Below the pieces are notes generated by a model. That model saw only the letters and a list, made by a program, of their open reading frames with translations. It made no database searches and was not told the DNA's origin. The position numbers and the translations under genes are program-made. Below, piece by piece: positions 1-39,729 of a DNA stretch of 64,000 nucleotides (position 1 is the stretch's first letter; each line of letters begins with the position of its first letter). The DNA comes from a virus. The stretch spans positions 4,927-68,926 of IMG/VR virus record IMGVR_UViG_3300005613_000050; one strand, 5' to 3'.

Positions 1-300
1 AAAATTTCTTATGAAAAGCTTCAAGAAATTTTTGACCAAATTGACGCTGCTAAAGTTGTTATTCAAGACCCTGAAACAATTAAGGAGCATATTGAGCTTT
101 GCTTAATATCTGCTGAGACAGTTTCTCAAGCTCTCGGTTATGAGTCTGGAGAAACTGAGAAAGCCAAAGAAGAACACGCCGAACGTGCAGCACGTATTGT
201 TACAGCACAACAGGCAGCAACATACAATAATCTCGATAAACGTACAGAAACAGGCTTAGACGTAACTGTTAAAGATAAGACAAGAGGGGAGGGACAATGA
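1..300 (+). CDS. 3' end of probable portal protein (partial)
   Basis: Open frame from base 1 (KISYEKLQEIFDQ...KDKTRGEGQ*) ending TGA at 298-300, overlapping the next ATG; the call rests on position upstream of scaffold and coat. Confidence 0.45.
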   Translation, partial: KISYEKLQEIFDQIDAAKVVIQDPETIKEHIELCLISAETVSQALGYESGETEKAKEEHAERAARIVTAQQAATYNNLDKRTETGLDVTVKDKTRGEGQ

Positions 301-746
301 CACCCTATATAACAGAAGAAGATGCAGATGCTTATTTTGATGAACGATTAAGAACAAGCCCTTGGGATGATACAACAGAGAGTAGTGGTGATAGGTTAAG
401 AGCTTTAAAAGAAGCGACAAGACTTATTGATAGGTTAAACTTTAAAGGTGATAAAACGTCTTCAACACAAGAACGGGAGTTCCCCAGAGAGGAGGAAACA
501 ACAGTACCTACAGACATACAATATGCGTGTGCGGAAATTGCTTTAAAACTATTAGATGATTTTGATCCAGACATGGAGGTTGAGAACCTTGGGATTGTGT
601 CTCAAGGAATCTCAACAGTAAAATCTACCTATGACCGTTCATATGTAATGGATCATTTGAGAGCGGGTATACCAAGTGCAACAGCTTGGAGTTATCTTGT
701 ACCTTATCTTGCTGATTCAAATGCAATAAACGTGAATAGGGTTTAG
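297..746 (+). CDS. Head-tail adaptor (DnaT-like/gp15-type)
   Basis: YITEEDADAYF, RALKEATRLIDRLNFKG, EFPR, VPTDIQYACAEIAL motifs typical of phage adaptors. Confidence 0.65.
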   Translation: MTPYITEEDADAYFDERLRTSPWDDTTESSGDRLRALKEATRLIDRLNFKGDKTSSTQEREFPREEETTVPTDIQYACAEIALKLLDDFDPDMEVENLGIVSQGISTVKSTYDRSYVMDHLRAGIPSATAWSYLVPYLADSNAINVNRV

Positions 747-759
747 TAAGGAGAAAGAA

Positions 760-1527
760 ATGGAATTTTTGAGTTACCAAATCAAGTGGGTTGGCGAGGA
801 TCAGGAACCGAATCAGGAACCGAATCAGGAACCGAATCAGGAACCGAATCAGGAACCTAAAAATAAGACCTACAGTCAAGCTGAGTTTGATAAACATATG
901 GCAGGTTTACGCCGTAAAAATGAATCTCAAGTTGAAGCTATGTCTAAAGAACTTGAGACTCTTAAAGAACGCAGTAACCTAACAACCCAAGAACGTGCTG
1001 ATTTGGAGACTCGTCTTGAGACTCTTAAAGAGGAATCAATGACGAAAGAGCAAAAACTTAATAAGCAGTTGAAGAAAGTCGATACTGAGTGGGCAAATAA
1101 GTTTAAGACTCTTGAAGAGAAACATAATGATCTCAGTAACCGCTATGAGAATGAAACAATTAACCGTGCAATTACTAATGCAGCAATAGACGGCGATGCG
1201 TTTTCCCCCGAACAAATTGTCGCTATCCTGCGTCCTACCACTCAGTTAATTCCTGAGTTGGGTGAGAATAAAGAACCTACCGGTAATTTGCTTACTATTG
1301 CAAACTTTACTGGGATTGATGAAGAAGGTAACACTGTAACAGAGAAATTACCCGTACAAGAAGCTGTTAAACGGATGCGAGAGATGCCGGAAAAATATGG
1401 TAATCTCTTTAAATCCGATTCCTCTTCTGGTGTGGGGCGTGGTAACAGTAATAATAATACAGACGATGATGCAAAATATAGTGGCGACATGAACTCATTC
1501 ATGCGCCGTAGGAAAAAAGAAAGGTAA
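760..1527 (+). CDS. Capsid scaffolding protein
   Basis: AAGGAG RBS, KTYSQAEFD motif, long coiled coil, Gly/Ser-rich C-terminus, directly upstream of coat. Confidence 0.75.
   Translation: MEFLSYQIKWVGEDQEPNQEPNQEPNQEPNQEPKNKTYSQAEFDKHMAGLRRKNESQVEAMSKELETLKERSNLTTQERADLETRLETLKEESMTKEQKLNKQLKKVDTEWANKFKTLEEKHNDLSNRYENETINRAITNAAIDGDAFSPEQIVAILRPTTQLIPELGENKEPTGNLLTIANFTGIDEEGNTVTEKLPVQEAVKRMREMPEKYGNLFKSDSSSGVGRGNSNNNTDDDAKYSGDMNSFMRRRKKER
800..859 (+). repeat. 12-bp tandem repeat x5 (ATCAGGAACCGA) encoding QEPN linker
   Basis: Direct reading. Confidence 0.95.
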
Positions 1528-1533
1528 TAAAAT

Positions 1534-2922
1534 ATGAAGACTTTGAGTTACCAAATCAAATGGATCGGTGCTAATGACGTAGATGCGCTTGTTCCCGAAA
1601 AATGGGCGATGGAAGGTCTTGCTCTGCTTCACGAGAATATGGTTGTTAAGCACCTTGTTCACACTGATTATAGTAATGAGATTCAGCGTGAAGGCGATAC
1701 CGTAAACACCCGTAAACCGAGCACCTTTACTGCTATCCGTAAGACTGATGCAGATACGGTCACGGTTCAGGATGCTACTGTAACGAATATTCCTGTCCTC
1801 CTCGATCAGCACCTGCACACTTCGTTCCTTATTAAGGATGGCGAAGAGAGTAAGTCGATGAAGGATCTCGTTGCTGAGTTCCTGCAACCTGCTATGCTTA
1901 GTATTGCTTCTCGCGTCGATCTCATGCTTCTTGGTCAGTTTCCGCGCTTTATGTCTAATGCTGCGGGTAGCCTTGGTACGCTGACTTCAACGACTGCGAA
2001 ACAACGTATTCTTTCTGCCCGTCAGGTCATGAATGATCTTAATGTTCCTGTTCAAGATCGTAACATGATTTGGAATACTGCTTCGGAAACGTCTGTACTT
2101 GATACCGACTTGTTCTTGAGTGCTGAACGTGTTGGTGATGATGGTACGGCTCTCCGTGATGCGAGTCTTGGTAAGAAGCTTGGTTTCAACCACTTCATGT
2201 GTCAGAACATGGCGAACATTGCTACTGGTTCGACTGCTGTGACTGGTGCTGTGAATAAGAGTGGTGGTTATGCTGCTGCAAGCACAACTATTGTTGTTGA
2301 TGGTTTCAGTGCTGCCATTACTGCCGGTTCTTATGTGACAATCGCTGGTGATATGATTCCTCGCCGTGTTGCTTCGACTGTTGGTGGTGCAACCCCGACG
2401 ACTATTGTTCTTGCTACTGGTCTGACGAGTGCTGTCGCTAATGATGCAGTTGTGACTGTCTATACTCCGGGCGCTGTGAATCTCAGTGGCGGTTATGCTG
2501 TTGGTTATGGTGGTAAGATTGCAGTTGATGGTTTCACTATTGCACCGAAAACTGGTCAGATTATTGCATTCGGTGACAGCACGACCACTGATTATTACAC
2601 TGTTATGGCGGCGACGACCACTCAGATTGAGCTTGATCGTCCTCTGGCTACTGCTATCAGTAATGATGATGCAGTCTGTGTCGGTCCTGCGGGAGAATAC
2701 AACTTCTTCTTCCGGCGTAATGCGATCTCGTTCGTGAACCGTCCTCTTGCTCTGCCCCGTACTAATGCAGGTGCTTTGAGTGCAGTCATGGACTATGAAG
2801 GTATTGCGCTTCGTATCGTTATCACTTATGATGGTGATAAGCAGGGTCACTTGGTCACGTGTGATACCCTCTGTGGTGTTGCACAATATGATAGTGATGA
2901 AGGTGGCGTATTGTTCGGTTAA
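1534..2922 (+). CDS. Major capsid protein, P22 coat-like HK97 fold with duplicated insertion domain
   Basis: ALVPEKWAMEGLALLHENMV, GDTVN, LGKKLGFNHFMCQN, C-terminal CDTLCG; optimised codon usage; followed by terminator. Confidence 0.9.
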   Translation: MKTLSYQIKWIGANDVDALVPEKWAMEGLALLHENMVVKHLVHTDYSNEIQREGDTVNTRKPSTFTAIRKTDADTVTVQDATVTNIPVLLDQHLHTSFLIKDGEESKSMKDLVAEFLQPAMLSIASRVDLMLLGQFPRFMSNAAGSLGTLTSTTAKQRILSARQVMNDLNVPVQDRNMIWNTASETSVLDTDLFLSAERVGDDGTALRDASLGKKLGFNHFMCQNMANIATGSTAVTGAVNKSGGYAAASTTIVVDGFSAAITAGSYVTIAGDMIPRRVASTVGGATPTTIVLATGLTSAVANDAVVTVYTPGAVNLSGGYAVGYGGKIAVDGFTIAPKTGQIIAFGDSTTTDYYTVMAATTTQIELDRPLATAISNDDAVCVGPAGEYNFFFRRNAISFVNRPLALPRTNAGALSAVMDYEGIALRIVITYDGDKQGHLVTCDTLCGVAQYDSDEGGVLFG

Positions 2923-2933
2923 GTTACTAACTC

Positions 2934-2970
2934 AGATAGGGGAGTCTTTAAGACTCCCCTATCTACTTTT
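2934..2970 (+). terminator. Intrinsic terminator after coat gene
   Basis: AGATAGGGGAGTC-TTTAA-GACTCCCCTATCT then ACTTTT. Confidence 0.85.
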
Positions 2971-2982
2971 AAGGATATAACA

Positions 2983-3405
2983 ATGTCTGATTATTTATAT
3001 AAAAGATCAGCACGTAAAATATTATACAGATTATCACGGCAGTACGGCACACAAGTAACATTCTCTCGTATTTTAAGCAAAACAAAAGATTTTGAAACAG
3101 GTGAATTTGTATATACAACTGAAGCAGAGACAGTAAAACGAGGTATATTACTTCCTTTGAAAATGAGTTCGTTATACTCGTATGATCTAACTTTCTTAGC
3201 TGCAAATAAAAACTTCCAATATGGGGCTAATTACGATGCGGGTTTACGATATATAATTATAGATCAGCGAGATATAACATTTGATGTTGGGCTACAGGAG
3301 TTTTGTTATATTGGTAGCATAAAGTATGAGGTATTATCTTTTGAAGATTTTGCGCCTTCAATAGCTCAAATTGCACGTATAAGACTGACACAGAATAGGG
3401 AGTAA
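2983..3405 (+). CDS. Head closure/stopper protein
   Basis: Position after coat; beta-rich; DFETGE motif. Confidence 0.55.
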   Translation: MSDYLYKRSARKILYRLSRQYGTQVTFSRILSKTKDFETGEFVYTTEAETVKRGILLPLKMSSLYSYDLTFLAANKNFQYGANYDAGLRYIIIDQRDITFDVGLQEFCYIGSIKYEVLSFEDFAPSIAQIARIRLTQNRE

Positions 3406-3408
3406 CAA

Positions 3409-3624
3409 ATGGAAATATTTTTTGGTTTAGCTTCAACAATAATTTTGGGGCTTATTGCAGTTATATATGCTAATTTAAATTCCAATGTTAAACAACTTTG
3501 GAAAGTTTTAGACGACATAAAATATGAATTTGCAAAATTGAGTAAGGCTCTTGTTGAACAAGAACTCCAAAATGAAAAACGTTTTGTAACGAAAGAAGAA
3601 TGTAAGAGTTGTCGTGGGGATTGA
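3409..3624 (+). CDS. Small membrane-anchored coiled-coil protein
   Basis: N-terminal TM helix, coiled coil, FVTKEEC ending; RBS GGGAG. Confidence 0.55.
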   Translation: MEIFFGLASTIILGLIAVIYANLNSNVKQLWKVLDDIKYEFAKLSKALVEQELQNEKRFVTKEECKSCRGD

Positions 3625-3649
3625 GTTATTAACTTAAGGAGTAAACAAT

Positions 3650-3892
3650 ATGAATCTTAGGTTCTGCTACTCAAAAGACGAGTTAGAAATATACTGGATC
3701 GTTTGCGCGAATCAGGCTGATTGTGATTCACTATCAAACCTTTATATTCCTAACAAGTTAAACGACACAGGCGACCCAGACACATTCGCCGTGACTAATT
3801 ACATGGATGTTTCTGGTGATGATATTTTCTGCCTTTACGGTTCGCGTACTAAGTATGTTGATGTTCTTGATAGTGAAATAAAGGAGATATGA
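3650..3892 (+). CDS. Hypothetical protein
   Basis: AAGGAG RBS, ATGA overlap with next gene. Confidence 0.55.
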   Translation: MNLRFCYSKDELEIYWIVCANQADCDSLSNLYIPNKLNDTGDPDTFAVTNYMDVSGDDIFCLYGSRTKYVDVLDSEIKEI

Positions 3893-5484
3893 TGGCTTGG
3901 AGTTCTGGGTTGCAAACAAACCTTATATCTCTTCACGAGTTTGACACTACAAATGAGACTAATCTTGGGGTGCCAACTGTAGGCACCTATAACGCGACAA
4001 ATGTTAACGGTGTTTTATATTCAAAGATAAAGGAGGGCACTGCTTGCCATGTGAACGGTGGATTAACATCATACCTTGAGTCAACTACCGCCCCATCTGT
4101 TAGTACAAATTTCTCGTTTAGTATGTGGCTTAGACAGACAGCCGGATTATCCGTAACCTACAGCTATATATCAAAGACTCAAACAAACAAAGAATTCTTG
4201 GTTTACTCTGATACTGTAGGAAATTTAATATTTCAACTTTTCTTGGCTGGTGGTCAGGTTGCAGCAGTATCACAGCCAATAGTACGTAATGCAACATATC
4301 ATATTGTTGGGACATGGGACTCATCTGTCGGAACGAAATTATATATTAATAACGGAACCCCAGCTGCGACCGCTTATACTGGTTCGTATAATTCTGGCGT
4401 TTCGTCTACGCTCCAAATTGGTGCGCGAAATGGTGGTCAAGTTGGTAACGGGTGGATCGGTCAAGTAGCGTTTTGGAATAGGACTCTATCTGCTTCAGAC
4501 GTTGCGGAGCTATACAATAGCGGTACTATGTTGCCGTATGTTGACTCACCTACAGACGATCAAATATTAGAAGCTGCAGGAGGCAACTACCACGATCCAG
4601 AAAATAGCGAAGTCCTAAAGGATGCACGGGTAGGCGTTGCTCCTCGTGTCGGCACGTTTGATGAAGCGGCACGTAATATCGACCCACTTGAAGAAAATGT
4701 TAAAGATGGTACAGCTTATAAGATTCTTAATGCAGATAAAACAGGTTCATTAGCTACAGGGCTTTTAACTCCTGCATTATCTATTGACGGGAACTTATTA
4801 GCAACAATAAGTAACAGCGAAACAGATTATGAGAATCATTTGAGTATACTTAAAGTTAGTAACTCAAAGTGGCATACAATCGGTTCGAGAACAGGGGATG
4901 GCACCTTACAGATTGCGGGTTTATCGGCAGGTGATTATACTGCTAGGGTAATGTCTATAGGGTCGCCCGGAACTGTTAGTGATAGCGTTGCATTTAGTGT
5001 GTCGGGGGATGCGCTTAATGGCGGCGTTAATGCTAACTGGGGGAGATGGATTTATGCCTCTATATGTAAACATTTCAATACTCATAGAGGGGATTATACT
5101 ATGTTTGTTGAAGGCGAGGAGAAGGACATTAGAGGGAATTCATCTTATTTTGAATTACGCGTAGATGGTCCTTATTATACGCAAAGCATGCACGGTTTTT
5201 GGGATTGTAGAATCGAGATAAACACTGTCTTTACTTTTGCAAATAAAGATAATGTTTTTTATGCTCGTGAGTTTGCAGATAAGCTAGCATCAATATTTAC
5301 TACTATTAGTTGTTATCGTTATGGTAATGGTATTTATGATGATGATACACTTTTAGGCTGTTTACAACCTATAGAAGGGTATAGGGAAAAGTTACAAATT
5401 AGTCAGTTTGGTGTTATGCCTAATGCTGAGGTACAGCAAGGCTCGATAGAAAGGCATTACAAGATGGAATTAGCGGAGGAATAA
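3889..5484 (+). CDS. LamG/ConA-domain protein fused to a probable tail terminator domain
   Basis: FSFSMWLR, YHIVGTWD, LYINN, IGQVAFWNRTLSASDVAELYN (LamG); C-terminal ~150 aa from NANWGRWIYASI lies directly before the major tail gene. Confidence 0.6.
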   Translation: MMAWSSGLQTNLISLHEFDTTNETNLGVPTVGTYNATNVNGVLYSKIKEGTACHVNGGLTSYLESTTAPSVSTNFSFSMWLRQTAGLSVTYSYISKTQTNKEFLVYSDTVGNLIFQLFLAGGQVAAVSQPIVRNATYHIVGTWDSSVGTKLYINNGTPAATAYTGSYNSGVSSTLQIGARNGGQVGNGWIGQVAFWNRTLSASDVAELYNSGTMLPYVDSPTDDQILEAAGGNYHDPENSEVLKDARVGVAPRVGTFDEAARNIDPLEENVKDGTAYKILNADKTGSLATGLLTPALSIDGNLLATISNSETDYENHLSILKVSNSKWHTIGSRTGDGTLQIAGLSAGDYTARVMSIGSPGTVSDSVAFSVSGDALNGGVNANWGRWIYASICKHFNTHRGDYTMFVEGEEKDIRGNSSYFELRVDGPYYTQSMHGFWDCRIEINTVFTFANKDNVFYAREFADKLASIFTTISCYRYGNGIYDDDTLLGCLQPIEGYREKLQISQFGVMPNAEVQQGSIERHYKMELAEE

Positions 5485-5485
5485 T

Positions 5486-5992
5486 ATGTATGAAATTAAA
5501 TGGGTTGGTGCTCAAATTGAAATGAAGAACACCATTTTAAAAATTAAAGATGGTGGAGCAAATGAGTTACAGATCAAAATTGGTGAAGGTACTTTAACAT
5601 ATGACGAAAAACGTAACATGGAATATGTTAAAGATCGTGGAGTTTTGGATAGTGTCCGTGAAGGTGATGAAGAAGCAATGGATGTTTCTTTTGAGTTTGT
5701 TTGGGAACAACTCACGGCAGTATCGACTTCTGGTTCTGGTACACCTACAATTGAAGATGCACTTAAACAGCGTGGTGAAGCTTCTGGTTGGGTGACGACT
5801 TCTTCGGATGAGTGTGAGCCTTATGCAGTTGATGTTGAGGTTGTTCATACACCGAACTGTGGGTCTGAATCTGCAGAAACCATTTTACTTCCTGATTTCC
5901 GTTGGACGAGTTTGGCTCATGATCTTAAAGCAGGTACTGTGGCAGTATCTGGTCGGTGTAATGCAAAAGAAGCAACTATTACACGTGCATAA
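5486..5992 (+). CDS. Major tail (tube) protein
   Basis: 168 aa beta-rich protein before the frameshifting chaperone and tape measure gene. Confidence 0.65.
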   Translation: MYEIKWVGAQIEMKNTILKIKDGGANELQIKIGEGTLTYDEKRNMEYVKDRGVLDSVREGDEEAMDVSFEFVWEQLTAVSTSGSGTPTIEDALKQRGEASGWVTTSSDECEPYAVDVEVVHTPNCGSESAETILLPDFRWTSLAHDLKAGTVAVSGRCNAKEATITRA

Positions 5993-6709: not shown

Positions 6710-7181
6710 AATTAAACCCATCAACCTTGATGATATTATGTGGGAAATACTTGACACATCAGCTAAGGTTTTGATTACTGAGGTGGCTCATAGAATACCT
6801 GTTTGGACGGGTCAAGCCGTTGGTAGTTTACTACCAGCGGCAAGACTCTTAAAGAAAGTTAAAATTGATTTTAGTCTTTTTCAGCAAAATGGAACCTATG
6901 CTAATTCAACTAAGAACTGGCGTACTGGAGCACAACAAGGTGAAGCAGATAGATTTAAGACTGGTAAAAAATATATTTTTAATTTTGACTCTTCACTTAT
7001 TGACTACATGGTAGAGAACGAACATATAGATCAAGAAGATGTAAATAATAGTTTTCAACGTGAGAGAGCATGGAGAATATTTGAAGAGATAACCCCTAGT
7101 GTGCAAGAATATATAGATGCATTTGTAAAGTGGAAATTTAAAAATGTATTTTCAGGGGCATATGTTGGGAGAGCATTATGA
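6672..7181 (+). CDS. Tail completion protein, HK97 gp10-like
   Basis: IPVWTGQAVGS resembles the PVxTGxL motif. Confidence 0.45.
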   Translation: MKIRVQTRLKGVKIKPINLDDIMWEILDTSAKVLITEVAHRIPVWTGQAVGSLLPAARLLKKVKIDFSLFQQNGTYANSTKNWRTGAQQGEADRFKTGKKYIFNFDSSLIDYMVENEHIDQEDVNNSFQRERAWRIFEEITPSVQEYIDAFVKWKFKNVFSGAYVGRAL

Positions 7182-10100
7182 GTGATTTTGGTGGTCGCAT
7201 TGAATTCCAATTAGGGACATCTATAAAAGATATAGGGGAGTTAAGCGAAGCTCTTAAGTTATTAAATGAAAAAATGTCAGAGCTTGTAACTAAATCACAA
7301 GCTGTTACTGATGCTTTTAATCAAGCTAAAACAGTTGCTAAACTTGAGAAAACACTTGAGAAATTAGCTAAAGCCGAAGCTAAAGTGCTTGAAGAACAAA
7401 AGAAAACAAGCGCGGCATTGAAAAATGCTAAAGCACTTTATACAGATAAGATTGCATCTGTTAAAAAACTAACTGATACATATGATGCTACTAATACAAA
7501 AATAAAAGAAACCAATACATATCTTTTAGATAATAACAGTGTACTTAAAGAAAACCTTAAAGTCTTAGAAGATGGTACGACAGAACTTAAAAGCTATAAT
7601 GTAGCTACAGAGGATCAAGTTCAAGCTAAAAAGAAACTAGAAGCAGCAGAGAAGAAAGCTAATAAAGAGACTCTAAGTGGTATAAAAGGCATACAGCGTT
7701 TAATGTCTTTTACAAATAAATTAGTTAAAGGCGAAAATGAAGCTTCAATACAAAAAATTAAATTAGCTAGAACAACAAGAGAACTTAATGCTGCAGAAGA
7801 TAGCCAAAGTAAACAGTGGGCTACTATGGTTACTCAGGCTAATAAATTAAATAGAGCATACGATCGTGCTGCAAAAATTAAGGCTAAAGAGCATGATGAA
7901 GCTATACGTCTTAATAGGGCTTATGATGCTAATACTCAATTACAAAAGCGTTTAACCTCTAATAAGATTAAAAATGTTCAAGTTACTAACTCATATAATG
8001 CAGCACTTGGTAAAGAGACAATAACCTATAAAGGTGTAACATCAGCGGGTAAACAGTATGTTGCAACAGTAACTAAAGTTAATGGTGTTGTTACAAATGT
8101 TACATCAAGAACTAAAGATGCTAATGCCCAATTAGATGAACAAAAGAAACGCCTAACTAAATTAACATTATCTTGGGCGACTTTTGCTCGTATTGCCGCA
8201 GTACAACTTATACATCGTGCTATAAGTCGTATTACAATGGAACTTCGTGAAGCAACAATATCAGCTAAAGACTTCTCTCTACGTATTGCTGAAATCCAAA
8301 CAATCTCTCAACGTAATCAATTAAGTACAGAAGCATGGGCAGAAGGACTTAAAGAAGTATCTAATAATTTAGGCATTGATGTTCTCGATCAAGCTGAAGC
8401 AGCTTATCAGGCTTTATCTAACCAGATTACTGAAGGCGCTGAGACCTTTGAGTTTCTAACTCAAGCAAGTAAGTTCGCTATAACAACAGTATCTTCATCT
8501 GCTGACTCAGTTAAACTCTTATCTGCTGCTCTCAATGCTTATGAATTAGGTATTGAAGATACTAATAAGGTCGCTGCAAACTTCTTTAAGACGATTGAGT
8601 TAGGTCGTATACGCTCTTCGGAACTTGCAGATACTTGGGGTAAGGTCGCTGTACCTGCTCGAACACTTAATATTCGTATGGAAGACGTTAATGCGTCATT
8701 AGCATTTATGACAATTAATGGTATTAAAGCTGATGAAGCAATGACTCTACTCCGCAATATTGTTCTTAAGTTAATTAAGCCTTCGACTGAGATGAAGAAT
8801 CTCTTTAAAGAGCTTGGAGTATCTTCTGGCGAAGCCGCTATCGCTACCTATGGTTTTGGCGGTTTTATGGCGGAGCTTGAGAAACGAACGAAAGGCAGTA
8901 CCACAGAGCTTGGTAAATTCTTTACTCGTCAGCGAGCATTAACAGGTGCTACACTCTTTGCAGGTAAAGGTTTAGAGAAATATAATGCAACCCTTAAGGA
9001 ACTTATAGCAGGGGAAGCTGATTATGCTAAAGCTAATGAGATTGCCTTAAATAATGTGGGTCGTAAATGGGAGATCTTAGGTACTAAAACCAAGAACTTC
9101 TTTTTAGATTTTGGCGACCTTATTGTCAACAGCACTATTTGGTGGGCAGACTTCTTAGGTGTTTTTGATGATATTAAAATAGCACAGGATTTAGAAAAAG
9201 AATATGCCATACTCCGTAAAGCAAACCAAAAACTAATAGACTCAAATGCTAAAGTTGTTGACGCTTATATTCGCGGGCTTAATCTTGAGGTAGCACAAGC
9301 AAATATAGCTAATAATAAAATTATCGACGCTAATAAAAAGCGTATTGGTATTCTTAAAAAATCTTTTGATGGTTATAAAAGTTATATTGAAGGCGGGTAT
9401 AAAGCCTTAATCGAGACTACTAAAAATCAAATAAAAAGTTTCGCATCTGAAATTGAAGCTATTGAAGCCGGAGGTAAGAAGTTTGAGCAGTTCATTAAAA
9501 GCATACAGATTAGTACCGAAAAACAAATCTTTGAATTCGAGCTAGAAGATAAATCAGTATCAAGACAAATTGATGCAGTAGGCGAGAAATATAGAGAGAC
9601 AATAGAACGAGCAAGAGCAACAGATTTATTTGATCCCGATACAGCTATACAAGAACTTAATAGAGCTAGAGAGTTAGCAACTCAAGGTATCAATCTAACA
9701 CGTCAAGTAAATAAAGAAAACAAGAAGGTTGAAGCTGAACGAACAAAACTTATTAAAGGGCGTAATAAGCTTGAAGTAGCGAAACAAAAAATTATTGATG
9801 CTTATAATCTTAAAATCTTTAATATAGAATCTTACACTACAAAAACAATTAAAGAACGAGCAAAACTAAAAGAAGATGCTAATAAAGAGCTAGCTAAACA
9901 GCTAGAAGATAATAATAACAAGCAAGAAACTTTTGAAAAGAAGTTAGCAGGTATCAAAGCAACAAATATTTCTCAAGAATTTACTGACTATAAACAAGTT
10001 TATGAAGATCTTAATGATGTAATTAAAGGTATACGTGAGCGTCAACAAGAAGCTGAGAAAAAACGTATCGAAGAACTTGGAAAATTAAAAGCTGAGCAGA

Positions 10101-11332
10101 TTATTAAATTAGCTAAACTTGAGAAGCAACTTAAAGTAACTGGGGGTTTTGATCTTGATAAACTATTAGCTACTGGCGATATTGAGGCAATCAATAAGGG
10201 TATTAGTAGTTATCGTATAGAACTTGAAAAACTTACAAGAGCCCAAGAAGCATTAGGTCTTAAAGTTGATACTACGGAAATTGAGAAGCAGGCTTTAGCT
10301 GTTGAAGAAGCTGGAAAATTAACTATTGCAAATATTCGTAATGAAGAACTAAAGAAAGCCGCAGAAGAAAAAAATAAAATCTTAATTGATAGTATACAGA
10401 AAACAAAAGAAGCATATGAGCAAGACCAAAATCAATTTTTTAATTACTCAAATGAAATAAGAAAAGCATTTAGGGAACTTGCAACTGCAGATGTTCCTTC
10501 TTCTTTCTTCGATCAAAGTGTCTCAACTGATACACTCAATAACTTGAGATTTTTAGCAGAAGAGCTAGACTATATAAGTGAAGATATTAATAAATTCAGT
10601 CTCTCTGATATTGAAGGATTTAAAACCAAACTTAGTACCTTAGAGGAAGCACTTAATATAAAAGTAGAGGGTAAAAAGCTTGCAGAACGGTATCCAGAAC
10701 TTGCCAAAGCATATGCTAAGGCGATAAATGCACTAAACACTAAAATAGACGGTAAAAACTTAATTGATTTTATTAAACAAGCTGAAAGAACTAAAACAAA
10801 ATATGAAGAATTAAAAACTAAAGCAGAAGAGTTTAAAGAAGCACAGAATGGAGTTAATAACTCACAGGAAACTAATTTAACTTTAACACAGCAGTTAACT
10901 ACAGCTACCGATAATTACGCAGAAGCCTTAGAACGTAGAAATAGGGCTATGAAGGATGCAGAAAATATTCGTGCTTTAATTGATAAAACAGAAGAAGCCA
11001 GACAGATAGCACAATGGAATCGCGCTTTCCCTGATGAACCTATACTCAGGGCTAATGGTGGGCGTATTAATGGTACTGATACTGTTCCGGCAATGTTGAC
11101 TCCGGGTGAATTTGTTGTTAATAAACACGCTTCACAGCGGTTTTTAAGTGAGCTTACAGCTATGAACAGTGTTAGGGGCTATGCAAATGGCGGTATGGTA
11201 ACAAATAATACTCAGAGTATTGGAGATATTAATGTTAATCTCCAGAGTAGTGGTAACTCTCAGGTTGATGTACGGCGTATTGCCAGTGGTATTAAACGTG
11301 AGATACGTCGAGGTACGATAAGTAATTTTTAG
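7178..11332 (+). CDS. Tape measure protein
   Basis: 1384 aa coiled coil with TP901-like core (GIKADEAMTLLRN) and GTDTVPAMLTPGEFVVN motif. Confidence 0.93.
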   Translation: MSDFGGRIEFQLGTSIKDIGELSEALKLLNEKMSELVTKSQAVTDAFNQAKTVAKLEKTLEKLAKAEAKVLEEQKKTSAALKNAKALYTDKIASVKKLTDTYDATNTKIKETNTYLLDNNSVLKENLKVLEDGTTELKSYNVATEDQVQAKKKLEAAEKKANKETLSGIKGIQRLMSFTNKLVKGENEASIQKIKLARTTRELNAAEDSQSKQWATMVTQANKLNRAYDRAAKIKAKEHDEAIRLNRAYDANTQLQKRLTSNKIKNVQVTNSYNAALGKETITYKGVTSAGKQYVATVTKVNGVVTNVTSRTKDANAQLDEQKKRLTKLTLSWATFARIAAVQLIHRAISRITMELREATISAKDFSLRIAEIQTISQRNQLSTEAWAEGLKEVSNNLGIDVLDQAEAAYQALSNQITEGAETFEFLTQASKFAITTVSSSADSVKLLSAALNAYELGIEDTNKVAANFFKTIELGRIRSSELADTWGKVAVPARTLNIRMEDVNASLAFMTINGIKADEAMTLLRNIVLKLIKPSTEMKNLFKELGVSSGEAAIATYGFGGFMAELEKRTKGSTTELGKFFTRQRALTGATLFAGKGLEKYNATLKELIAGEADYAKANEIALNNVGRKWEILGTKTKNFFLDFGDLIVNSTIWWADFLGVFDDIKIAQDLEKEYAILRKANQKLIDSNAKVVDAYIRGLNLEVAQANIANNKIIDANKKRIGILKKSFDGYKSYIEGGYKALIETTKNQIKSFASEIEAIEAGGKKFEQFIKSIQISTEKQIFEFELEDKSVSRQIDAVGEKYRETIERARATDLFDPDTAIQELNRARELATQGINLTRQVNKENKKVEAERTKLIKGRNKLEVAKQKIIDAYNLKIFNIESYTTKTIKERAKLKEDANKELAKQLEDNNNKQETFEKKLAGIKATNISQEFTDYKQVYEDLNDVIKGIRERQQEAEKKRIEELGKLKAEQIIKLAKLEKQLKVTGGFDLDKLLATGDIEAINKGISSYRIELEKLTRAQEALGLKVDTTEIEKQALAVEEAGKLTIANIRNEELKKAAEEKNKILIDSIQKTKEAYEQDQNQFFNYSNEIRKAFRELATADVPSSFFDQSVSTDTLNNLRFLAEELDYISEDINKFSLSDIEGFKTKLSTLEEALNIKVEGKKLAERYPELAKAYAKAINALNTKIDGKNLIDFIKQAERTKTKYEELKTKAEEFKEAQNGVNNSQETNLTLTQQLTTATDNYAEALERRNRAMKDAENIRALIDKTEEARQIAQWNRAFPDEPILRANGGRINGTDTVPAMLTPGEFVVNKHASQRFLSELTAMNSVRGYANGGMVTNNTQSIGDINVNLQSSGNSQVDVRRIASGIKREIRRGTISNF

Positions 11333-20998: not shown

Positions 20999-21471
20999 CT
21001 TTATTAGGTAAAGGTCCAAGTCTTGATAATTACGAATATGAGATGTATACAGTTGGTATTAATGAGACTGCTTATTTTAAAGACTGCGATGCTGCTATAG
21101 CTATAGATTACCCTATATTAAGAAAATATCAAGAATACTTATCAAAAGAAATTTTAGTGTTTAGAAAACATACTCACATAAGTTATAGTTTCCCAAAAAT
21201 GTTCTTAGTTGATTATGCTATTCATGCCCCTATAAAAGATTTAAGAGGAGGTACAGCATCAATATTTATTCAATTAGCTCATTTTCTCGGTGTTAAAACC
21301 ATACATTTTTGGGGTTTTGATGCTGTTACTGGTACTGATTCAGGGTATGCAGGTAGTGTTATTGAACATAAAGCTCAAGGTACAAACACCAATAAATATA
21401 AGAGAATAAGTAATGGTATTGTTTCAACTTTAAAGAAGACAAAAATACAGCCAATATGGAGGCACTTATAA
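20977..21471 (+). CDS. DUF115/MptE-like (Maf/CstII-like) sugar transferase domain protein
   Basis: LLGKGPSL, VGINE, LAHFLGVKTIHFWGFD. Confidence 0.65.
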   Translation: MRIPREITLLGKGPSLDNYEYEMYTVGINETAYFKDCDAAIAIDYPILRKYQEYLSKEILVFRKHTHISYSFPKMFLVDYAIHAPIKDLRGGTASIFIQLAHFLGVKTIHFWGFDAVTGTDSGYAGSVIEHKAQGTNTNKYKRISNGIVSTLKKTKIQPIWRHL

Positions 21472-22223
21472 TGCTCGGTGTAAGTATAGTTATTGCAACA
21501 TATAACCGAGATCATTTACTGAAACTCGGATTAGAATCTATAGCCAGACAAGAATATCCAAACTTGGAAGTTATTGTCGTTAATGATGGTTTATCTGGTG
21601 ATGCAGAGAACATAACAAAAGACTACGGATACACATATATTTACACAGGAGAGAGAAACTTAACAAAACCATTTTGGCGGTCAGCAGGTGTCGCTTTAAA
21701 TATAGGCGCAACCAGAGCAACTAAAGAAGTTTTGATACTATCTTGCGCTGAGATGTACCACTTACAATATAACACTATTGAGTTACTAACTTATCCACTA
21801 TATAACAATAAGAATCTATTATGTACTCCAAAAGGTAAAGATGATGTTACTGGACAATATCTACATAAATTACTAAGTACAGGTCACTCCGTACAAGAAT
21901 TAAATAGATGTAATAAATTAAATACTAAGCTACCTTTCTTAATGGCTATATGGAAAAAATATTTTATTGAGTTAGGTGGTTATGATTTAGATTTAACTAA
22001 AGGTATGTCCTATGATGATGATGATATAGTTGATCGTTTATTACGATATGGGTGTAGTTATGAAAGAACACAAGCAGAGTGTGTCCATCTTTATCATAGT
22101 CGTAGTACACCAACTAAAAGAGACAAAGGTCGATACGAATATAATAAGAACTTATTTGAACAGCGTAAAGGTATTTTAATCAGGAATGGAGGAGCATTAA
22201 ATGAGCAGTTATCTGTCAGCTAA
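21471..22223 (+). CDS. Glycosyltransferase family 2 with GT7-like C-terminus
   Basis: VSIVIATYNR, VVNDG, GGYD..YDDDD, HLYH. Confidence 0.9.
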   Translation: MLGVSIVIATYNRDHLLKLGLESIARQEYPNLEVIVVNDGLSGDAENITKDYGYTYIYTGERNLTKPFWRSAGVALNIGATRATKEVLILSCAEMYHLQYNTIELLTYPLYNNKNLLCTPKGKDDVTGQYLHKLLSTGHSVQELNRCNKLNTKLPFLMAIWKKYFIELGGYDLDLTKGMSYDDDDIVDRLLRYGCSYERTQAECVHLYHSRSTPTKRDKGRYEYNKNLFEQRKGILIRNGGALNEQLSVS

Positions 22224-23139
22224 TACAGTACCTTGGAAACTTTTAAAGAACCCTAAAAGAATTAAGAGTCCGTATCACGTGCAATTTATACCTACTAATA
22301 GGTGTAATGGAAACTGTTCTTGGTGTTCTTGTAAAGGAGTTGATCGTCAACTTGAGTTAGAAACTCAAGAAGCCATAGATATTATTAACTATTTTGCGGA
22401 GCTTGGTACTCGCGCTATAACAATAACAGGTGGAGGTGAGCCAACTTTACACCGAGGCTTCGAGCGTATATATAACAACATTATTAGACATAATATTAAA
22501 TCAGGTTTAACAACTAATGCTATACTTTTAAGTCAAGGGCGTTATGCAGGTATTTTAAATGATAATCTAACATGGTGTCGTTTATCTGTTACAGATACCG
22601 AGAGTGGTAACTACCCAATGGGGCGTTTAAGTGACTCTATTAGTTATTTACCTAACGTGGATGTCGGTATAAGTTTCACAGTTACAAGTAGTGTTAGCTT
22701 AGATACTGTTAAGGAAGTCTGTGTATTAGCAAAATGTTCAAGTAATGTTACTCATATCAGGTTTACACAAGATATTTTTAAAGCCGAAGATGAAGATAAT
22801 ATAGTAGCAATGAAGCGCGTAGAGAAAATGGCTAAACAAATTACAGACAAAGCTATTATTCAGTTCCGTAATACGCCTACAAAAGGAGCTAGAAAATGCC
22901 ATATATCTAAAGTTAAACCAGTTATTAATTGTGACGGGTATATTTATCCTTGTTGTGGTGCTCAATATGCTATTGATGAAACACATAAAATGCCTAAAGA
23001 GATGCGCATGTGTTATTGGAACGATTTCGATATTACTCCAATTTTTAATGGAAGCATTTGTAAAATCTGTTACTATAATGATTATAATAAATGTATTGAT
23101 AACTTAATATCTCCTATTGAGCACGAGGACTTCTTATGA
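22201..23139 (+). CDS. Radical SAM enzyme with SPASM/twitch-like domain
   Basis: CNGNCSWC, TGGGEPT, C-terminal Cys cluster (DGYIYPCC, CKIC). Confidence 0.9.
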   Translation: MSSYLSANTVPWKLLKNPKRIKSPYHVQFIPTNRCNGNCSWCSCKGVDRQLELETQEAIDIINYFAELGTRAITITGGGEPTLHRGFERIYNNIIRHNIKSGLTTNAILLSQGRYAGILNDNLTWCRLSVTDTESGNYPMGRLSDSISYLPNVDVGISFTVTSSVSLDTVKEVCVLAKCSSNVTHIRFTQDIFKAEDEDNIVAMKRVEKMAKQITDKAIIQFRNTPTKGARKCHISKVKPVINCDGYIYPCCGAQYAIDETHKMPKEMRMCYWNDFDITPIFNGSICKICYYNDYNKCIDNLISPIEHEDFL

Positions 23140-23837
23140 GTTTGACAGTGGCTACACCTTGTTATAACCATGGTAAATATCTTGAGGAAGCTATTTTATC
23201 TGTACTTAATCAATCTTATGGGGATTATACTTATATCCTTGTTAATGATGGTAGTACAGATAATAGCCTTGAAATAATGAGAAAATATGAAAAATTAGAT
23301 AAACGCATTAAGATTATAGATCAACCAAAACAACGTAATAAAACTTTTGGATTGAATAAAACTATTAAAGGAGATTATTGGCTGTGGTGTCCTGCTGATG
23401 ATAAACTAAAACAAGATTGCATCTTACATAAAATGGAGCATATTAAGAAATACCCATGTGTAATATATAATTATAATTATGATTTAATAAATCAATATGG
23501 TGAGTTAACTGGTGTTGTTAATATGAAACCAAAAACAAATGAAGAATTTTGGGATCATGTTTGGCACAGTTGTGAGATTGCTTTCACTGGGGCATTATTT
23601 GATTGTCGGGTATTTAATATTGTTGGTGATTTCCCTGAGGACGAGGATATTAGTGAGGACTTCAAATGGATGCTGAAAGCTTGTATCTATAAAATCCCGT
23701 TTATTGGTTTACACGATAATCAGCACTATAAGCGTAAAAATCCGGAGTCGGTGACCGCCAAAAATATTGATATTATAGCTGAAAATACTGCTAGAATAAG
23801 GAGAGAAATTTGCAACTCAGTAGGACTGATCGACTGA
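23136..23837 (+). CDS. Glycosyltransferase family 2
   Basis: TPCYNHGKYL, VNDGSTDNS, ADD, SED. Confidence 0.92.
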   Translation: MSLTVATPCYNHGKYLEEAILSVLNQSYGDYTYILVNDGSTDNSLEIMRKYEKLDKRIKIIDQPKQRNKTFGLNKTIKGDYWLWCPADDKLKQDCILHKMEHIKKYPCVIYNYNYDLINQYGELTGVVNMKPKTNEEFWDHVWHSCEIAFTGALFDCRVFNIVGDFPEDEDISEDFKWMLKACIYKIPFIGLHDNQHYKRKNPESVTAKNIDIIAENTARIRREICNSVGLID

Positions 23838-24415
23838 TGTGGCATATACTTAAACTCAATATTGTTATAAGTCCAGAGCAAGGATTTATGTACGCTAAAG
23901 CCCCAAAAACGGCGGGAACATCTATTTACCGTAAAATCATGGAGAAGCATATTCCAGATGTGTTCTTGCTAGACAATAATAAGAAATGGATCTTCAAAAA
24001 TAGGAAACAAAAACTATATAAATTTACAGTTGTTAGAAACCCTTGGGGCAGATTAGTTTCAAATTTTACATACTGTAAGAAATTAAAATACGCCCCAATA
24101 CCATCAACTTTCAGTGATTTTATTACTTTCTTAGAGGACGGTAATGGTACTACAAATTTAAAAGCTCACTGTAGAACAATACATGAATATTTTTTATTTG
24201 AAGGTGAGCAATGGGTAGATCGTATTTACTTTTTTGAATGTTTGGTATCAGAGTGGCAACATATAAGGTCAAAAGTTAATAACTTACCAGAAGTGTTGCC
24301 ACTATCAAATAAAAGTAATCATGCTAATTATCGACAATACTATACTGACAATGATATTGATAGAGTTTATGTGATGTATAAAACTGAGATCGACTACTTG
24401 GGATATAGCTTTTAA
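23837..24415 (+). CDS. Sulfotransferase (Sulfotransfer_2-like)
   Basis: PKTAGTS (5'-PSB), FTVVRNPWGRLVS (3'-PB), YRQYY..DYLGYSF. Confidence 0.88.
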   Translation: MWHILKLNIVISPEQGFMYAKAPKTAGTSIYRKIMEKHIPDVFLLDNNKKWIFKNRKQKLYKFTVVRNPWGRLVSNFTYCKKLKYAPIPSTFSDFITFLEDGNGTTNLKAHCRTIHEYFLFEGEQWVDRIYFFECLVSEWQHIRSKVNNLPEVLPLSNKSNHANYRQYYTDNDIDRVYVMYKTEIDYLGYSF

Positions 24416-24426
24416 AGGAGAGAGAT

Positions 24427-25248
24427 TTGCGCGCAATACTTTGTTGGGGAAATTCAAAATTAAGTTGGTTGCGGTACATGACACTATATAGTTTAAGGAA
24501 ATTTAATCCAGATTTAGATATTACACTATATCGTTATGATGGTAGCACTGAAAAACAATGGAAAGATGATGTTGAACAGGATTTTAATGGTTATGACGGT
24601 ATCGACTATATGGATCGTGTACCTGAATTAAATATTAAAATTGAGAATTGGGATTGTGAGCTAGAAGATGCAACATTATCACATAAGAGTAATATCCTTA
24701 AGTGGCAGATGTTAGGGCAAGGTGATTGTATTTATTTTGATATGGATATTTTATTCTTACGGGATATACAACCTGTTATTAAGTTACTAACTCAAGGTAA
24801 TACAATGTTATGTATAGATGAGTGGTTAATGATTGGGGTCTTAGGTTCTATAGGTAAAAACGTATTCTTTAATACTGCTTATCAGAACTGTTCTAGGGTC
24901 TTTGATAAAAATAGATACCAGAGCCTAGGTGTTGAGAATCTATATACTATGCTCTATGGCGGTTTTGCTCACAATACTGATGGTACTATAAATTGGGACT
25001 ATATTTTTAAGCAAGATATTAAAAAAGATATTGAACATTTATTTGGTGTTACTGTTGCTAATTTACCTAAAGATATGTTCTATAGATATGACCATAAAAA
25101 CATTGATTGTATTTACGGGACTGAGGATGTTGACGTTGGCGGTATGGTTGGTTTACATTGGTATGGTGGTCATATTGCTTCGCAAAGATTTAATAATAAC
25201 GTATATGAAGATGCTTTTATCTATAGAAAAATTAAGGAGATACTGTGA
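24427..25248 (+). CDS. DXD-motif glycosyltransferase (GT32-like)
   Basis: WLRYMTLYS, IYFDMDILFLR, GLHWYGG. Confidence 0.8.
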   Translation: MRAILCWGNSKLSWLRYMTLYSLRKFNPDLDITLYRYDGSTEKQWKDDVEQDFNGYDGIDYMDRVPELNIKIENWDCELEDATLSHKSNILKWQMLGQGDCIYFDMDILFLRDIQPVIKLLTQGNTMLCIDEWLMIGVLGSIGKNVFFNTAYQNCSRVFDKNRYQSLGVENLYTMLYGGFAHNTDGTINWDYIFKQDIKKDIEHLFGVTVANLPKDMFYRYDHKNIDCIYGTEDVDVGGMVGLHWYGGHIASQRFNNNVYEDAFIYRKIKEIL

Positions 25249-26066
25249 TACCCAAAAGACTAATATTCTTTTGGGCAGGGACAAAAATGTCTTGGTTACG
25301 GTATATTAGTATTTATTCAGCTTGGTATTATCATCGTGATTATGAGATTAAACTCTATTATACCTCAGATGTTGATAATCAATCTCTGCCTGAACGTAAT
25401 GATTTATGTGGCGAGAACTATTTTGATAGACTTAAAGAGTTAGGTATTATTATTGAGGAGTACGAGATTCTTCAAAACCCAGAACGAACAAAAAGAGGGT
25501 GGAAATATGTAGCCCCTGCTCAAACTTGTGATATACTGCAATGGCATAAATTATATGAAGAAGGTGGGATATTTTGTGATTCGGATATTATATTCTTAAG
25601 ACCTATTAATGAGGAGTTACTAACTCATGATATTTTAACCTGTTTTAAACGTTATTATACTGTTGGGTTCTGGGGAGCTAAGCCTGATACTGAGATGATG
25701 CTAGATTTTTATAGTAATGCTTTCTTCACTTTTGATGAAGATAATTATCAGACAGCAGGTGTTACCAATATTCAAAGTGTTACAAAACAAAAGCTTAGCA
25801 GCCTTAGTGGGCATAAGCTTAAAGATTTAGTTATGAGCTACCCTGATCTAAGCATTTTTAATCTGTCTTTCGATTCTTTTTACAGATGGGATTATAATAA
25901 TCTCGACAAAGTTTATGAAAGTTTCGAGGCAATTAAAGATAATCAAATAGGTATACATTGGTATGGCGGTCATGTTGACAGTAAGAAGTGGATTAAGTTA
26001 CTAACTCAAGATAATTATAAGTCATTTAATAGTACACTCTGTAATGCTATAAGGAGAATAACATGA
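25245..26066 (+). CDS. DXD-motif glycosyltransferase (GT32-like), paralogue
   Basis: MIPKRLIFFW, LYEEGGIFCDSDIIFLRP, GIHWYGG. Confidence 0.85.
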   Translation: MIPKRLIFFWAGTKMSWLRYISIYSAWYYHRDYEIKLYYTSDVDNQSLPERNDLCGENYFDRLKELGIIIEEYEILQNPERTKRGWKYVAPAQTCDILQWHKLYEEGGIFCDSDIIFLRPINEELLTHDILTCFKRYYTVGFWGAKPDTEMMLDFYSNAFFTFDEDNYQTAGVTNIQSVTKQKLSSLSGHKLKDLVMSYPDLSIFNLSFDSFYRWDYNNLDKVYESFEAIKDNQIGIHWYGGHVDSKKWIKLLTQDNYKSFNSTLCNAIRRIT

Positions 26067-27334
26067 AGGTCTGTGCGTTTTACACAATAGGTACACCTTA
26101 TGAAGAGCTTGTTGCTCGTTTCAAATTGAGTGCTTTAAACAATAGTATCAAGCCTTATATTAAAGGTTACGAACCTCAAGGGTCTTGGGAATTAAACTGT
26201 GGTCTTAAGCCAACTTTCATTAAAGAATGCCTTGAGAAGTTTAAAGAACCTATTCTCTATGTAGATATAGATGCGACATTTGAAGCCCCTATTGATGAGT
26301 CTATTATGGATGGTGATATATGCTTATATAGACTACAAGATAAAGAAGTATTAAGTGGTACATTATATTTTAAATACAACAAGAGAACATTAGCTTTCCT
26401 TGATAAATGGATTGAGAAACAAAAAGAATATCCAATGATGTGGGATCAACGGACATTAAGTAAAACATTATTAGAGTCTGATATTAAGCAAGGCAAACTC
26501 CCTGCTACTTATTGTAAGATTTTCGATATTATGAAAAAAGTCAGTGGCGGTGTTATTGTTCATCACCAAGCTTCAAGGCGGCTAAAGAAAGTTGTTAAAG
26601 ATGTTATAGAGCCAAAACCTATTGTATCTATCGAAGAGAAAGAAGAGGTTGTTATACCTAAAGAGGTTCGTTTTGCAGCTAATGGTCTTATGTTTATGGT
26701 ACGCAATAAACGTGATGCTGTTGAATATATGGATAAACATTTCCAGCGTGTAACTAATGAACTAAAATGGTATCCAAAGATTGAGGCGACTGATTTCAAA
26801 AAATTTAAAGAGAAATATAAAAATAAGATCTGTAATATTATTGGGAAAGGTTCTAGCCTTGATTTACTAACTCAAATCGATAATGATGGTCCAATTATTT
26901 GTTTAAATGAGTCGATACATTATATTGAGGGGCTAGGTCTTAAGAACCCAATCTATTGTGTCCAACAGGATACCCGACTACAAGGCTCTTGTGAGCCTAA
27001 AGAAGGCTTCTTATTTGTTAATGCCTTAGCGAAACGTTTTTACAAAGATTTTGACAATAAGTATATTTATGTTGCTGGATCATTAGGACTTAAAGATACT
27101 TCTTTATCAGTTTGTGTGGCTATTGAGATTGGTAAAATATTTGGATGTAAAGAATTTAAGCTTTACGCTTTTGATGCCTGCACAAATAAGACCCTTAATT
27201 ACGCTAAAGCTATTGGCTATGATTCTAAAAAATATGGTGACCCAAGTAGATTCTTGAGCCACCACGAGATTATTGATAAACAGCTTGAAGGCTGTAATTA
27301 CGGGTACGTAAACATCTCAACCAAACGCTTATAG
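26063..27334 (+). CDS. Nucleotide-diphospho-sugar transferase fused to DUF115/MptE-like domain
   Basis: KPTFI, LYVDIDA, WDQ, HHQASR; C-terminal IIGKGSSL..ICLNE..FGCKEFKLYAFD. Confidence 0.8.
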   Translation: MKVCAFYTIGTPYEELVARFKLSALNNSIKPYIKGYEPQGSWELNCGLKPTFIKECLEKFKEPILYVDIDATFEAPIDESIMDGDICLYRLQDKEVLSGTLYFKYNKRTLAFLDKWIEKQKEYPMMWDQRTLSKTLLESDIKQGKLPATYCKIFDIMKKVSGGVIVHHQASRRLKKVVKDVIEPKPIVSIEEKEEVVIPKEVRFAANGLMFMVRNKRDAVEYMDKHFQRVTNELKWYPKIEATDFKKFKEKYKNKICNIIGKGSSLDLLTQIDNDGPIICLNESIHYIEGLGLKNPIYCVQQDTRLQGSCEPKEGFLFVNALAKRFYKDFDNKYIYVAGSLGLKDTSLSVCVAIEIGKIFGCKEFKLYAFDACTNKTLNYAKAIGYDSKKYGDPSRFLSHHEIIDKQLEGCNYGYVNISTKRL

Positions 27335-29974: not shown

Positions 29975-30162
29975 TATTCTTCTCCTTCTAAGTTAGTAAC
30001 TCTATAAGTAAGATTATTGATAGTAACTAAATCACCAATTTTAAACTCCGCATCCATCTCAAACTTGATATAGCTATTAGTAGCCCTCATCCATTTTACA
30101 TTTTCGGCTACAATACTAAATGCTGTAGGTTTATAATCTATAGGTTTAAGAGTCACTATCAT
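29974..30162 (-). CDS. Hypothetical protein
   Basis: MIVTLKPIDY start with GGAG RBS. Confidence 0.5.
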   Translation of the reverse strand: MIVTLKPIDYKPTAFSIVAENVKWMRATNSYIKFEMDAEFKIGDLVTINNLTYRVTNLEGEE

Positions 30163-30448
30163 TTTGCATCTCCATCCATAACATAAAGAGTATACAACAA
30201 GCCGCATGAGCTAAATGAGATAAACCAGATTCTGCATCTATTTTTTCTTTAGCTGTTAAGTGGCGCATACACGCCCCAAAATAACGCTCCTTACTGATTT
30301 TCTTCCAGTTGTCTGGGGCATATTTCTTAGCTCCAAAAGTCAAGACTTTAACAATCTGACGTAAAGCACCATAGGGCATTAGTTCCCATCTATCTTTATC
30401 TTGATCGTGCTTGACTCCTTCTTGAGTTACTAACTTATTTTCGCTCAT
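30146..30448 (-). CDS. dATP/dGTP diphosphohydrolase domain protein (DUF5664)
   Basis: GVKHDQDKDRWELMP, VLTFGAKKYAPDNW, DAESGLSHLAHAACC. Confidence 0.88.
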   Translation of the reverse strand: MSENKLVTQEGVKHDQDKDRWELMPYGALRQIVKVLTFGAKKYAPDNWKKISKERYFGACMRHLTAKEKIDAESGLSHLAHAACCILFMLWMEMQNDSDS

Positions 30449-39728: not shown

Positions 39729-39729
39729 A

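Follow-up and report, generated by a model that had tools for sequence, protein, structure and literature searches.

The window analysed here is a 64,000-nucleotide stretch of DNA, corresponding to bases 4927-68926 of the 68,926-bp viral contig IMGVR_UViG_3300005613_000050, an uncultured phage in IMG/VR. The contig displays 123-bp direct terminal repeats and a G+C content of 37%. Its head genes follow the order terminase, portal (phrog_145), adaptor-like protein, scaffold and coat, and a major tail (tube) gene lies further along the same strand. The element under study is a short N-terminal leader with the motif Y[QE]IKW[VI]G. According to the sequence and the list of open reading frames (ORFs), this motif opens three ORFs, those of the scaffold (start 760), the P22-type coat (1534) and the tail-tube protein (5486). 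The initial annotation had described a leader shared by scaffold, coat and major tail protein, and the sequences and starts proved to be as claimed. On the plus strand, the 12-residue scaffold leader MEFLSYQIKWVG (760..795) is joined directly to EDQEPN, the 12-residue coat leader MKTLSYQIKWIG (1534..1569) to ANDVDA, and the 8-residue tube leader MYEIKWVG (5486..5509) to AQIEMK. Sites resembling Shine-Dalgarno sequences precede all three starts, with AAGGAG upstream of 760, GAAAGG upstream of 1534 and GGAGG upstream of 5486. The motif is unique in the genome, as a six-frame search of the window and of the complete 68,926-bp sequence located [QE]IKW at no other place. When the N-termini of all ORFs were screened for W[VILFYM]G or [YF]x[IVL]xW, no fourth carrier emerged; the lone KWIG match is internal to an exonuclease ORF and not at the start. 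The acidic linker directly after the scaffold leader comprises five QEPN repeats (796-860, plus strand), and relatives present EGEGEG, GDGDGD or Ala-rich acidic runs at this position.

The three carriers were assigned by profile matches, structural modelling and gene position. The head scaffolding protein (760..1527, plus strand, 255 residues) matches phrog_206 (E 2.8e-15) and, weakly, the Phage_scaffold family PF06810 (E 0.065). The major coat protein of P22 type (1534..2922, plus strand, 462 residues) matches PF11651 (E 3e-33) and phrog_283 (E 3.2e-58). The PF11651 match spans coat residues 30-462 against profile positions 18-423, that is, the whole fold, and the coat model reaches a predicted local distance difference test score (pLDDT) of 87.2. 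No family match was obtained for the 168-residue tube protein (5486..5992, plus strand). Its AlphaFold2 model, built with 51 homologues, has a pLDDT of 87.3 and a predicted template modelling score (pTM) of 0.79. The top Foldseek matches of this model in the PDB are tail-tube proteins, comprising tube or tail chains of PVC, HFTV1, P74-26, Sf11 and monocin as well as T5 pb6. These matches combine probabilities of 0.98-1.00 and template modelling (TM) scores of about 0.4-0.6 with weak E-values (best 1.2e-3). The position of the gene, upstream of a chaperone-like ORF and a 1,384-residue tape measure protein, agrees with a tail-tube fold. The models and profile matches thus point to three unrelated folds, in line with the initial annotation.

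Homologous proteins and structural models indicate that the leader is a true N-terminal extension, predicted to be unstructured. The residues after the terminal glycine had been described as normal starts, and an alignment of homologous coats and tails had been proposed as a check. Leaderless homologues begin exactly at these residues. Among non-redundant sequences, two of 59 coats lack a leader and open with M|ANSIDAF or M|ANDLDAF. Both begin at the residue after G12 of the window coat (position P1'), so that A13 equals their first residue after Met. Likewise, 24 of 50 tubes are leaderless and open with M|AQIDxK or similar, which corresponds to the residue after G8 of the window tube (A9). 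The PF11651 profile enters the coat only at residue 30, equivalent to profile position 18. AlphaFold assigns a pLDDT below 50 to tube residues 1-6 and a mean of 48 to the first 10 coat residues, and it predicts no secondary structure before coat residue 17. Leader and mature part meet without a linker, and 49 of 54 coats have Y, F or G as the last leader residue (P1).

Relatives were gathered in successive scans. The first scan of viral contigs with the coat yielded 9 loci, and a scan with a coat profile confirmed 376 relatives, 80 of which were retained. Genome contigs contributed 14 loci, including prophages in large Planctomycetota contigs (Thermoguttaceae, Pirellulales and Planctomycetaceae) and one Opitutales contig. 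The coat start could be parsed in 75 of 103 loci, and the remaining 28 were left out. Within each phage, the scaffold and the coat open with the same peptide, often shared by the tube, and this peptide varies between phages. Examples include RRWFG/REWFG (locus L002), RLWYG/RNWYG (L003), KKF[YV]LLY (L004), KVWVPVF, KIWTPVF and KAWTPVF (L088), and ..FVACY and ..WFGCY in the L020 prophage. An F[KR]P[VI]Y type occurs in L092, L095 and L102. Across the family, the leader has the consensus [KR]-[IV]-W-x-[PTS]-V-[FY]; the next residue is A in coats and tubes and E/D in scaffolds. Leaders measure 8-16 residues and precede acidic or polar sequence, as in the three window proteins. They carry a mean net charge of +1.7 and 58% hydrophobic residues, and W is present in 55 of 80. 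Some relatives bear their own leader on the portal and the tape measure as well (L025 at 711 and 9545; L026 at 14527; L034 at 2622; L045 at 1097 and 8411), with examples such as MRSRYWYG|EE, MIYKIRKWYG|TA and MKIWKSVF|GV. The tape measure of the window has no leader. A leader is present on 26 of the 50 non-redundant tubes, and 18 parsed loci (duplicates included) combine a coat with a leader and a tube without one. Since the leader has been lost and gained on the tube, it is a modular tag that some carriers can do without.

The motif is conserved in close relatives, a point on which the initial annotation had made its proposal depend. Locus L001, whose coat is 82% identical to that of the window, has MSYQIKWVG and MMYQIKWVG on scaffold and coat. 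Four tail proteins with 77-82% identity (P0002-P0005) open with MYKIKWVG, MYKINWVG, MYKIQWLG and MYKIKWVG, which together give Y-x-I-x-W-[VL]-G. The search for further carriers of YQIKW[VI]G returned 51 viral-contig stretches. L001 is the sole true relative among them, and the others are internal or non-coding coincidences.

Sharing within phages was quantified in two ways. In 57 loci (duplicates collapsed and leaders shorter than 8 residues dropped), the six C-terminal residues of the coat leader were scored against the first 70 residues of the other ORFs at the same locus (1,019 ORFs in all). A score of at least 22 was reached 53 times against 2.5 expected from 44,072 cross-locus controls, and a score of at least 26 was reached 30 times against 0.18. 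The other comparison involved no selection on similarity, as the leaders of coat and tube were delimited only by motifs of the mature parts. In 23 non-redundant loci, coat and tube leaders covary between phages: 86 of 161 residues at P7-P1 are identical, whereas shuffling gave a mean of 45.0 (standard deviation 4.8, maximum 66 in 10,000). Matches are concentrated at P1 (17 against 6.7 expected), P3 (13 against 3.3), P2 (18 against 11.6) and P5 (19 against 13.6), whereas P4 and P6 give only a weak signal. Leader types track the coat tree, with 22 changes against a shuffled mean of 33.8 (62 rows). The window groups with L001, L002 and L003, all of the W-x-G type. Convergence of the xC[YF] type on this tree was considered and dropped, because the approximately unbiased (AU) test does not reject a single clade (p 0.143).

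Some loci display variations on this arrangement. A 145-residue ORF directly after the coat gene of the distant relative L019 (9063-9500) opens with MKWYPQIG|G, in agreement with the ..KTYPQIG|A of the coat and the ..KWYILIG|E of the scaffold at that locus. This ORF is possibly a third head protein with a leader. The coat and tube of L036 are leaderless, yet its scaffold (8185-8991) opens with the leader-like MVLDLYDLLVWAG|DGEG. L080 is apparently leaderless on scaffold, coat and tube.

Codon usage indicates that selection acts on the leader peptide. Protein-level selection had been proposed from synonymous codon differences between the leader copies, which are real on re-reading the sequence and which recur at about the chance level among relatives. 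Across 50 within-phage leader pairs, the same codon is used at 79 of 165 identical degenerate residues, against 67.2 expected under independence. This near-random codon identity means that the leader copies are old and have not been kept alike by recent gene conversion. A caveat had been attached to this argument, namely that the LSYQI codons of scaffold and coat also form a copy of a DNA palindrome. The caveat is accurate. The 17-nt sequence TTGAGTTACCAAATCAA, which spans the LSYQIK codons, is the same in the scaffold (769..785) and coat (1543..1559) leaders on the plus strand and is a copy of a scattered palindrome by sequence match. The 17-bp palindrome, TTGAGTTnnnAACTCAA, occurs in 51 copies in the window when up to 2 arm mismatches are permitted, compared with 0.2 in shuffled sequences. 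The sites, for example at 8448, 22352, 38265, 43679 and 61952, are scattered over coding and intergenic DNA. Sixteen of the 51 fall within 60 nt of an ORF start, compared with 19% of random points. Among relatives, L001 has 3 copies, L003 has 5 and L028 has 8, and the palindrome is absent from L002, L004 and L030. The phage also encodes two ParB-like proteins (34704-35720 and 39718-40569), and a link between these genes and the palindrome is possible.

The closest precedent for such a leader is the Prp system of staphylococcal phage 80alpha. According to the available text of PMC5744158, Prp cuts an F|A bond in the scaffold and coat of 80alpha. Assembly requires the scaffold leader but proceeds without cleavage of the two proteins, and a common chaperone for the leader is suggested. 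The same source places the Prp motif on the major tail protein of phi13. The L27/Prp motif is given as MLxx(D/N)LQ(F/L)F|A(S/H)KK in PMC9405229, where the phyla listed for Prp are Firmicutes, Fusobacteria, Synergistetes, Tenericutes, Thermotogae and spirochaetes. Both the ..Y[QE]IKW[VI]G|A/E of the window and the family consensus are unlike this motif, and genes for Prp and L27 are absent from the phage genome. Prp (PF04327, E <= 0.001) was found in none of five host genomes of related prophages, whereas the same search detected it in the controls B. subtilis, T. maritima and L. lactis. All five host genomes encode a short L27 that starts M-AHKKGQG. The leader, judged by these sequences, does not look like the staphylococcal Prp/L27 system. 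The initial annotation had proposed a new cleavable leader that gates the assembly of head and tail, and both cleavage and gating stay at the level of a proposal here. Its claim of a motif distinct from that of Prp and L27 stands, but sharing that includes a major tail protein had already been noted in phi13.

A host substrate with the same motif would be a clue to a host reader of the leader. The host search proposed initially was carried out as DNA patterns in three genomes of related-prophage hosts. A strict pattern built on the prophage's own leader hit nothing but the scaffold and coat of the prophage (2 per genome; control 0). A looser pattern gave 23 matches against 11 in the control, and none of the 17 non-prophage matches lies at an ORF start. 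Only prophage copies were thus found at ORF starts. On the phage side, the head-tail adaptor-like protein (297..746, plus strand; PF20557 E 4.5e-13, phrog_477 E 1.7e-16) fills the position between portal and scaffold at which a prohead protease is encoded in many phages. This gene order bears out the earlier remark that no prohead protease gene sits by the scaffold. A papain-like-looking 198-residue ORF beside the L014 prophage was considered as a general reader and rejected, as it has no Pfam match and occurs only in L014 and L015. Readings of the leader as a Sec signal peptide, a lipobox or a type IV prepilin leader were also discarded, given its length of 8-16 residues and the acidic or polar sequence that follows. 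Leaders of the secretion type require a sufficiently long hydrophobic core, or G|F with a hydrophobic helix behind it.

We consider it somewhat probable that Y[QE]IKW[VI]G represents the form taken in this phage by a lineage-specific virion-protein leader, which is read by one common factor and most likely cleaved off. Under this proposal, a short, basic-hydrophobic and unstructured peptide would be placed directly before the normal first residue of scaffold, coat and tube. A single factor would read it on all carriers of a phage, probably in an extended conformation, with P5, P3, P2 and P1 as the positions that count. The presence of the same peptide on all carriers of a phage would follow from this common reader. 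The leader would then be removed by endoproteolysis at an aromatic- or Gly-to-Ala/Glu/Asp junction, leaving an N-terminus identical to that of leaderless homologues after simple Met removal. Cleavage is likely because the junction lacks a linker, P1 is constrained, and the product equals the leaderless N-terminus. We infer the single reader, the cleavage and any role in the timing or coordination of head and tail assembly from comparative sequence evidence. A broader proposal concerns the uncultured siphophages represented by the 376 coat relatives in viral contigs and the Planctomycetota prophages. Each lineage in this group may give as many as five of its head and tail proteins a co-evolving N-terminal peptide of its own, as a leader code that is independent of Prp. 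It would be read by a new type of leader peptidase or act as a self-recognising tag, and would couple head and tail maturation. We put this wider proposal forward tentatively, as a possibility that falls slightly short of an even chance.

The main rival explanation considers the leader an uncleaved docking or chaperone tag, which would recruit a common chaperone or assembly factor and either stay on or be removed only incidentally. We regard this as unlikely, but as an explanation of real weight. It gains support from 80alpha, in which the scaffold leader is essential, cleavage is not, and a common chaperone has been suggested (PMC5744158). The failure to find a protease in the ORFs scanned and the basic-hydrophobic, W-rich composition of the leaders also fit such a tag. 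However, a linkerless junction with a constrained P1 is expected of a cut site and is not needed for a tag. Furthermore, a generic host chaperone motif would not need the within-phage match at P3-P1, and half of the tail tubes manage without a leader. The remaining explanations are less likely than an uncleaved tag. One of them dispenses with a separate reader and assumes that each leader associates with identical copies, for instance as beta strands in register, and thereby gathers the virion proteins. Self-recognition would account for within-phage identity and concerted change without a reader gene, and the leaders are rich in beta-formers and aromatics. Nonetheless, the match at P5 and the contiguous P3-P1, with only weak contributions from P4 and P6, resembles a binding cleft more than a zipper. 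Head and tail also assemble separately, so mixing of their subunits would have no obvious use, and we deem self-pairing improbable.

Ordinary Prp/L27 mimicry would require a host with Prp and a long L27 of divergent motif, copied by the phage. The architecture is indeed the same as in the 80alpha scaffold and coat and the phi13 major tail protein (PMC5744158), and most relatives have an aromatic P1 followed by Ala, like F|A. This possibility is nevertheless very doubtful: the leader is unlike the L27 motif of PMC9405229, the phyla listed there for Prp are few, and all five related-prophage hosts combine a short L27 with the lack of Prp. Even less probable is the view that the leader is a by-product at the nucleic-acid level, in which the shared codons would reflect the palindrome or another 5' mRNA signal of late genes. 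The identical 17 nt in scaffold and coat and the large excess of palindrome copies speak for it. On the other hand, the tail copy and the KW[VI]G codons fall outside the palindrome and differ at synonymous sites. The L001 coat retains YQIKWVG although its codons depart from the palindrome arms at 4 positions, as read from the sequence by eye. Near-random codon identity in the 50 leader pairs, and the quite different leaders that other lineages place in the same architecture, argue against this view as well.

Several observations weigh against the preferred reading, that of a lineage-specific leader that is read by a common factor and cleaved. The one analogue that has been studied, 80alpha, provides a precedent for a leader that can work without being cut (PMC5744158). 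Scans of 78 ORFs of this phage against Pfam and of 18 ORFs against PHROGs detected no peptidase family, a search that a very divergent enzyme could escape. For cleavage, an unrecognised enzyme of the phage or an enzyme of the host would therefore be required. The Prp/L27 test was indirect, as it covers the hosts of related prophages. The host-genome motif searches consisted of strict DNA patterns, which a looser host substrate would escape. The shuffling controls ignore relatedness among the phages, and 17 nt of the scaffold and coat leader coding sequence double as a palindrome copy. Moreover, the leader-bearing clade has no cultured member, and the cultured distant relatives that were examined (MAR10, R5C, Pan1 and phiCP26F) are leaderless.

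Comparison with known systems helps to delimit what is new. As in 80alpha and phi13 (PMC5744158), a short N-terminal peptide is common to non-homologous scaffold, coat and tail proteins, is added on to the mature protein, and occurs without a recognised phage prohead protease; the junction in the relatives studied here is mostly aromatic|Ala. In contrast to the Prp leaders, the motif is unrelated to the L27 extension, the hosts of related prophages lack Prp and have a short L27, and in three of their genomes no copy at an ORF start was found outside the prophage. Here, the leader varies from lineage to lineage, changes in concert within a phage, and extends to the portal and tape measure of some relatives. 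Cleavage has been established for 80alpha and is only probable in the present case. The common leader of scaffold, coat and tail protein is thus of a known kind, while the motif, the apparent independence from Prp, the concerted change within lineages and the reach to portal and tape measure are new. Our literature search, which did not cover supplementary files, found no description of such leaders outside the Prp system.

Other phages trim their virion proteins in different ways. The capsid targeting sequence of T4 is an N-terminal address of about 10 residues on unrelated internal proteins, and it is cut off by the prohead protease gp21. T4 thus uses its own protease, which cuts after Glu, and targets head-internal proteins only. 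Here, tail proteins are tagged as well, and the ORFs scanned revealed no protease gene. In P2, the scaffold-protease gpO trims the N-termini of coat, portal and scaffold, and we know of no common leader sequence among these substrates. The P2 enzyme is part of the scaffold, whereas the scaffold of the window phage is of coiled-coil type and has no peptidase match. In general, the propeptide types of HK97, T4, lambda and P2 differ from the present arrangement, in which no prohead protease gene was recognised between portal and coat.

To our knowledge, a removable N-terminal leader common to unrelated phage assembly proteins has a single precedent, which depends on a host ribosomal-protein protease restricted to a few phyla. 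The same architecture now appears in a large group of uncultured phages, with concerted change of the leader on head and tail proteins of each phage, and the known hosts of their prophage relatives are without that protease. These features point to a second way of marking, and probably of processing, virion proteins. The predicted mature N-termini are A13 for the coat and A9 for the tube. If the proposal is true, the factor that reads the leader code would couple the maturation of head and tail proteins. The leader could also help to trace its reader and to identify structural genes in viral dark matter.

The neighbouring genes complete the description of the locus. The tape measure protein (7178..11332, plus strand, 1,384 residues) was recognised by its size, its coiled-coil-like sequence and its location downstream of the tube gene and the chaperone-like gene. 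Directly upstream of the tube gene, a 531-residue protein (3889-5484, plus strand) combines a concanavalin-A-like lectin domain (PF13385) with a C-terminal module (..NWGRWIYASICKHF..). Relatives encode this module separately, as a protein of about 160 residues directly before the tube gene, for example in L004 (5255-5764). Judged by this arrangement, the fusion may be a neck or tail-terminator protein that displays a lectin domain. A small protein with one hydrophobic helix is encoded within the head-neck block (3409-3624, plus strand), and similar small one-helix ORFs follow the coat gene in L003 (8686-8910), L036 (10393-10662) and L020 (10524-10811). On the minus strand, positions 30146-30448 encode an N-terminal domain of a MazZ-like dATP/dGTP diphosphohydrolase (PF18909, E 3e-30). 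The genome contains no adenylosuccinate-synthetase-like gene (PF00709) and therefore gives no sign of a full 2-aminoadenine pathway. After the tail genes, a series of sugar-modifying genes (21456-27334, plus strand) encodes two GT2 glycosyltransferases, a radical SAM enzyme, a sulfotransferase, and DXD-motif and nucleotide-diphospho-sugar transferases.

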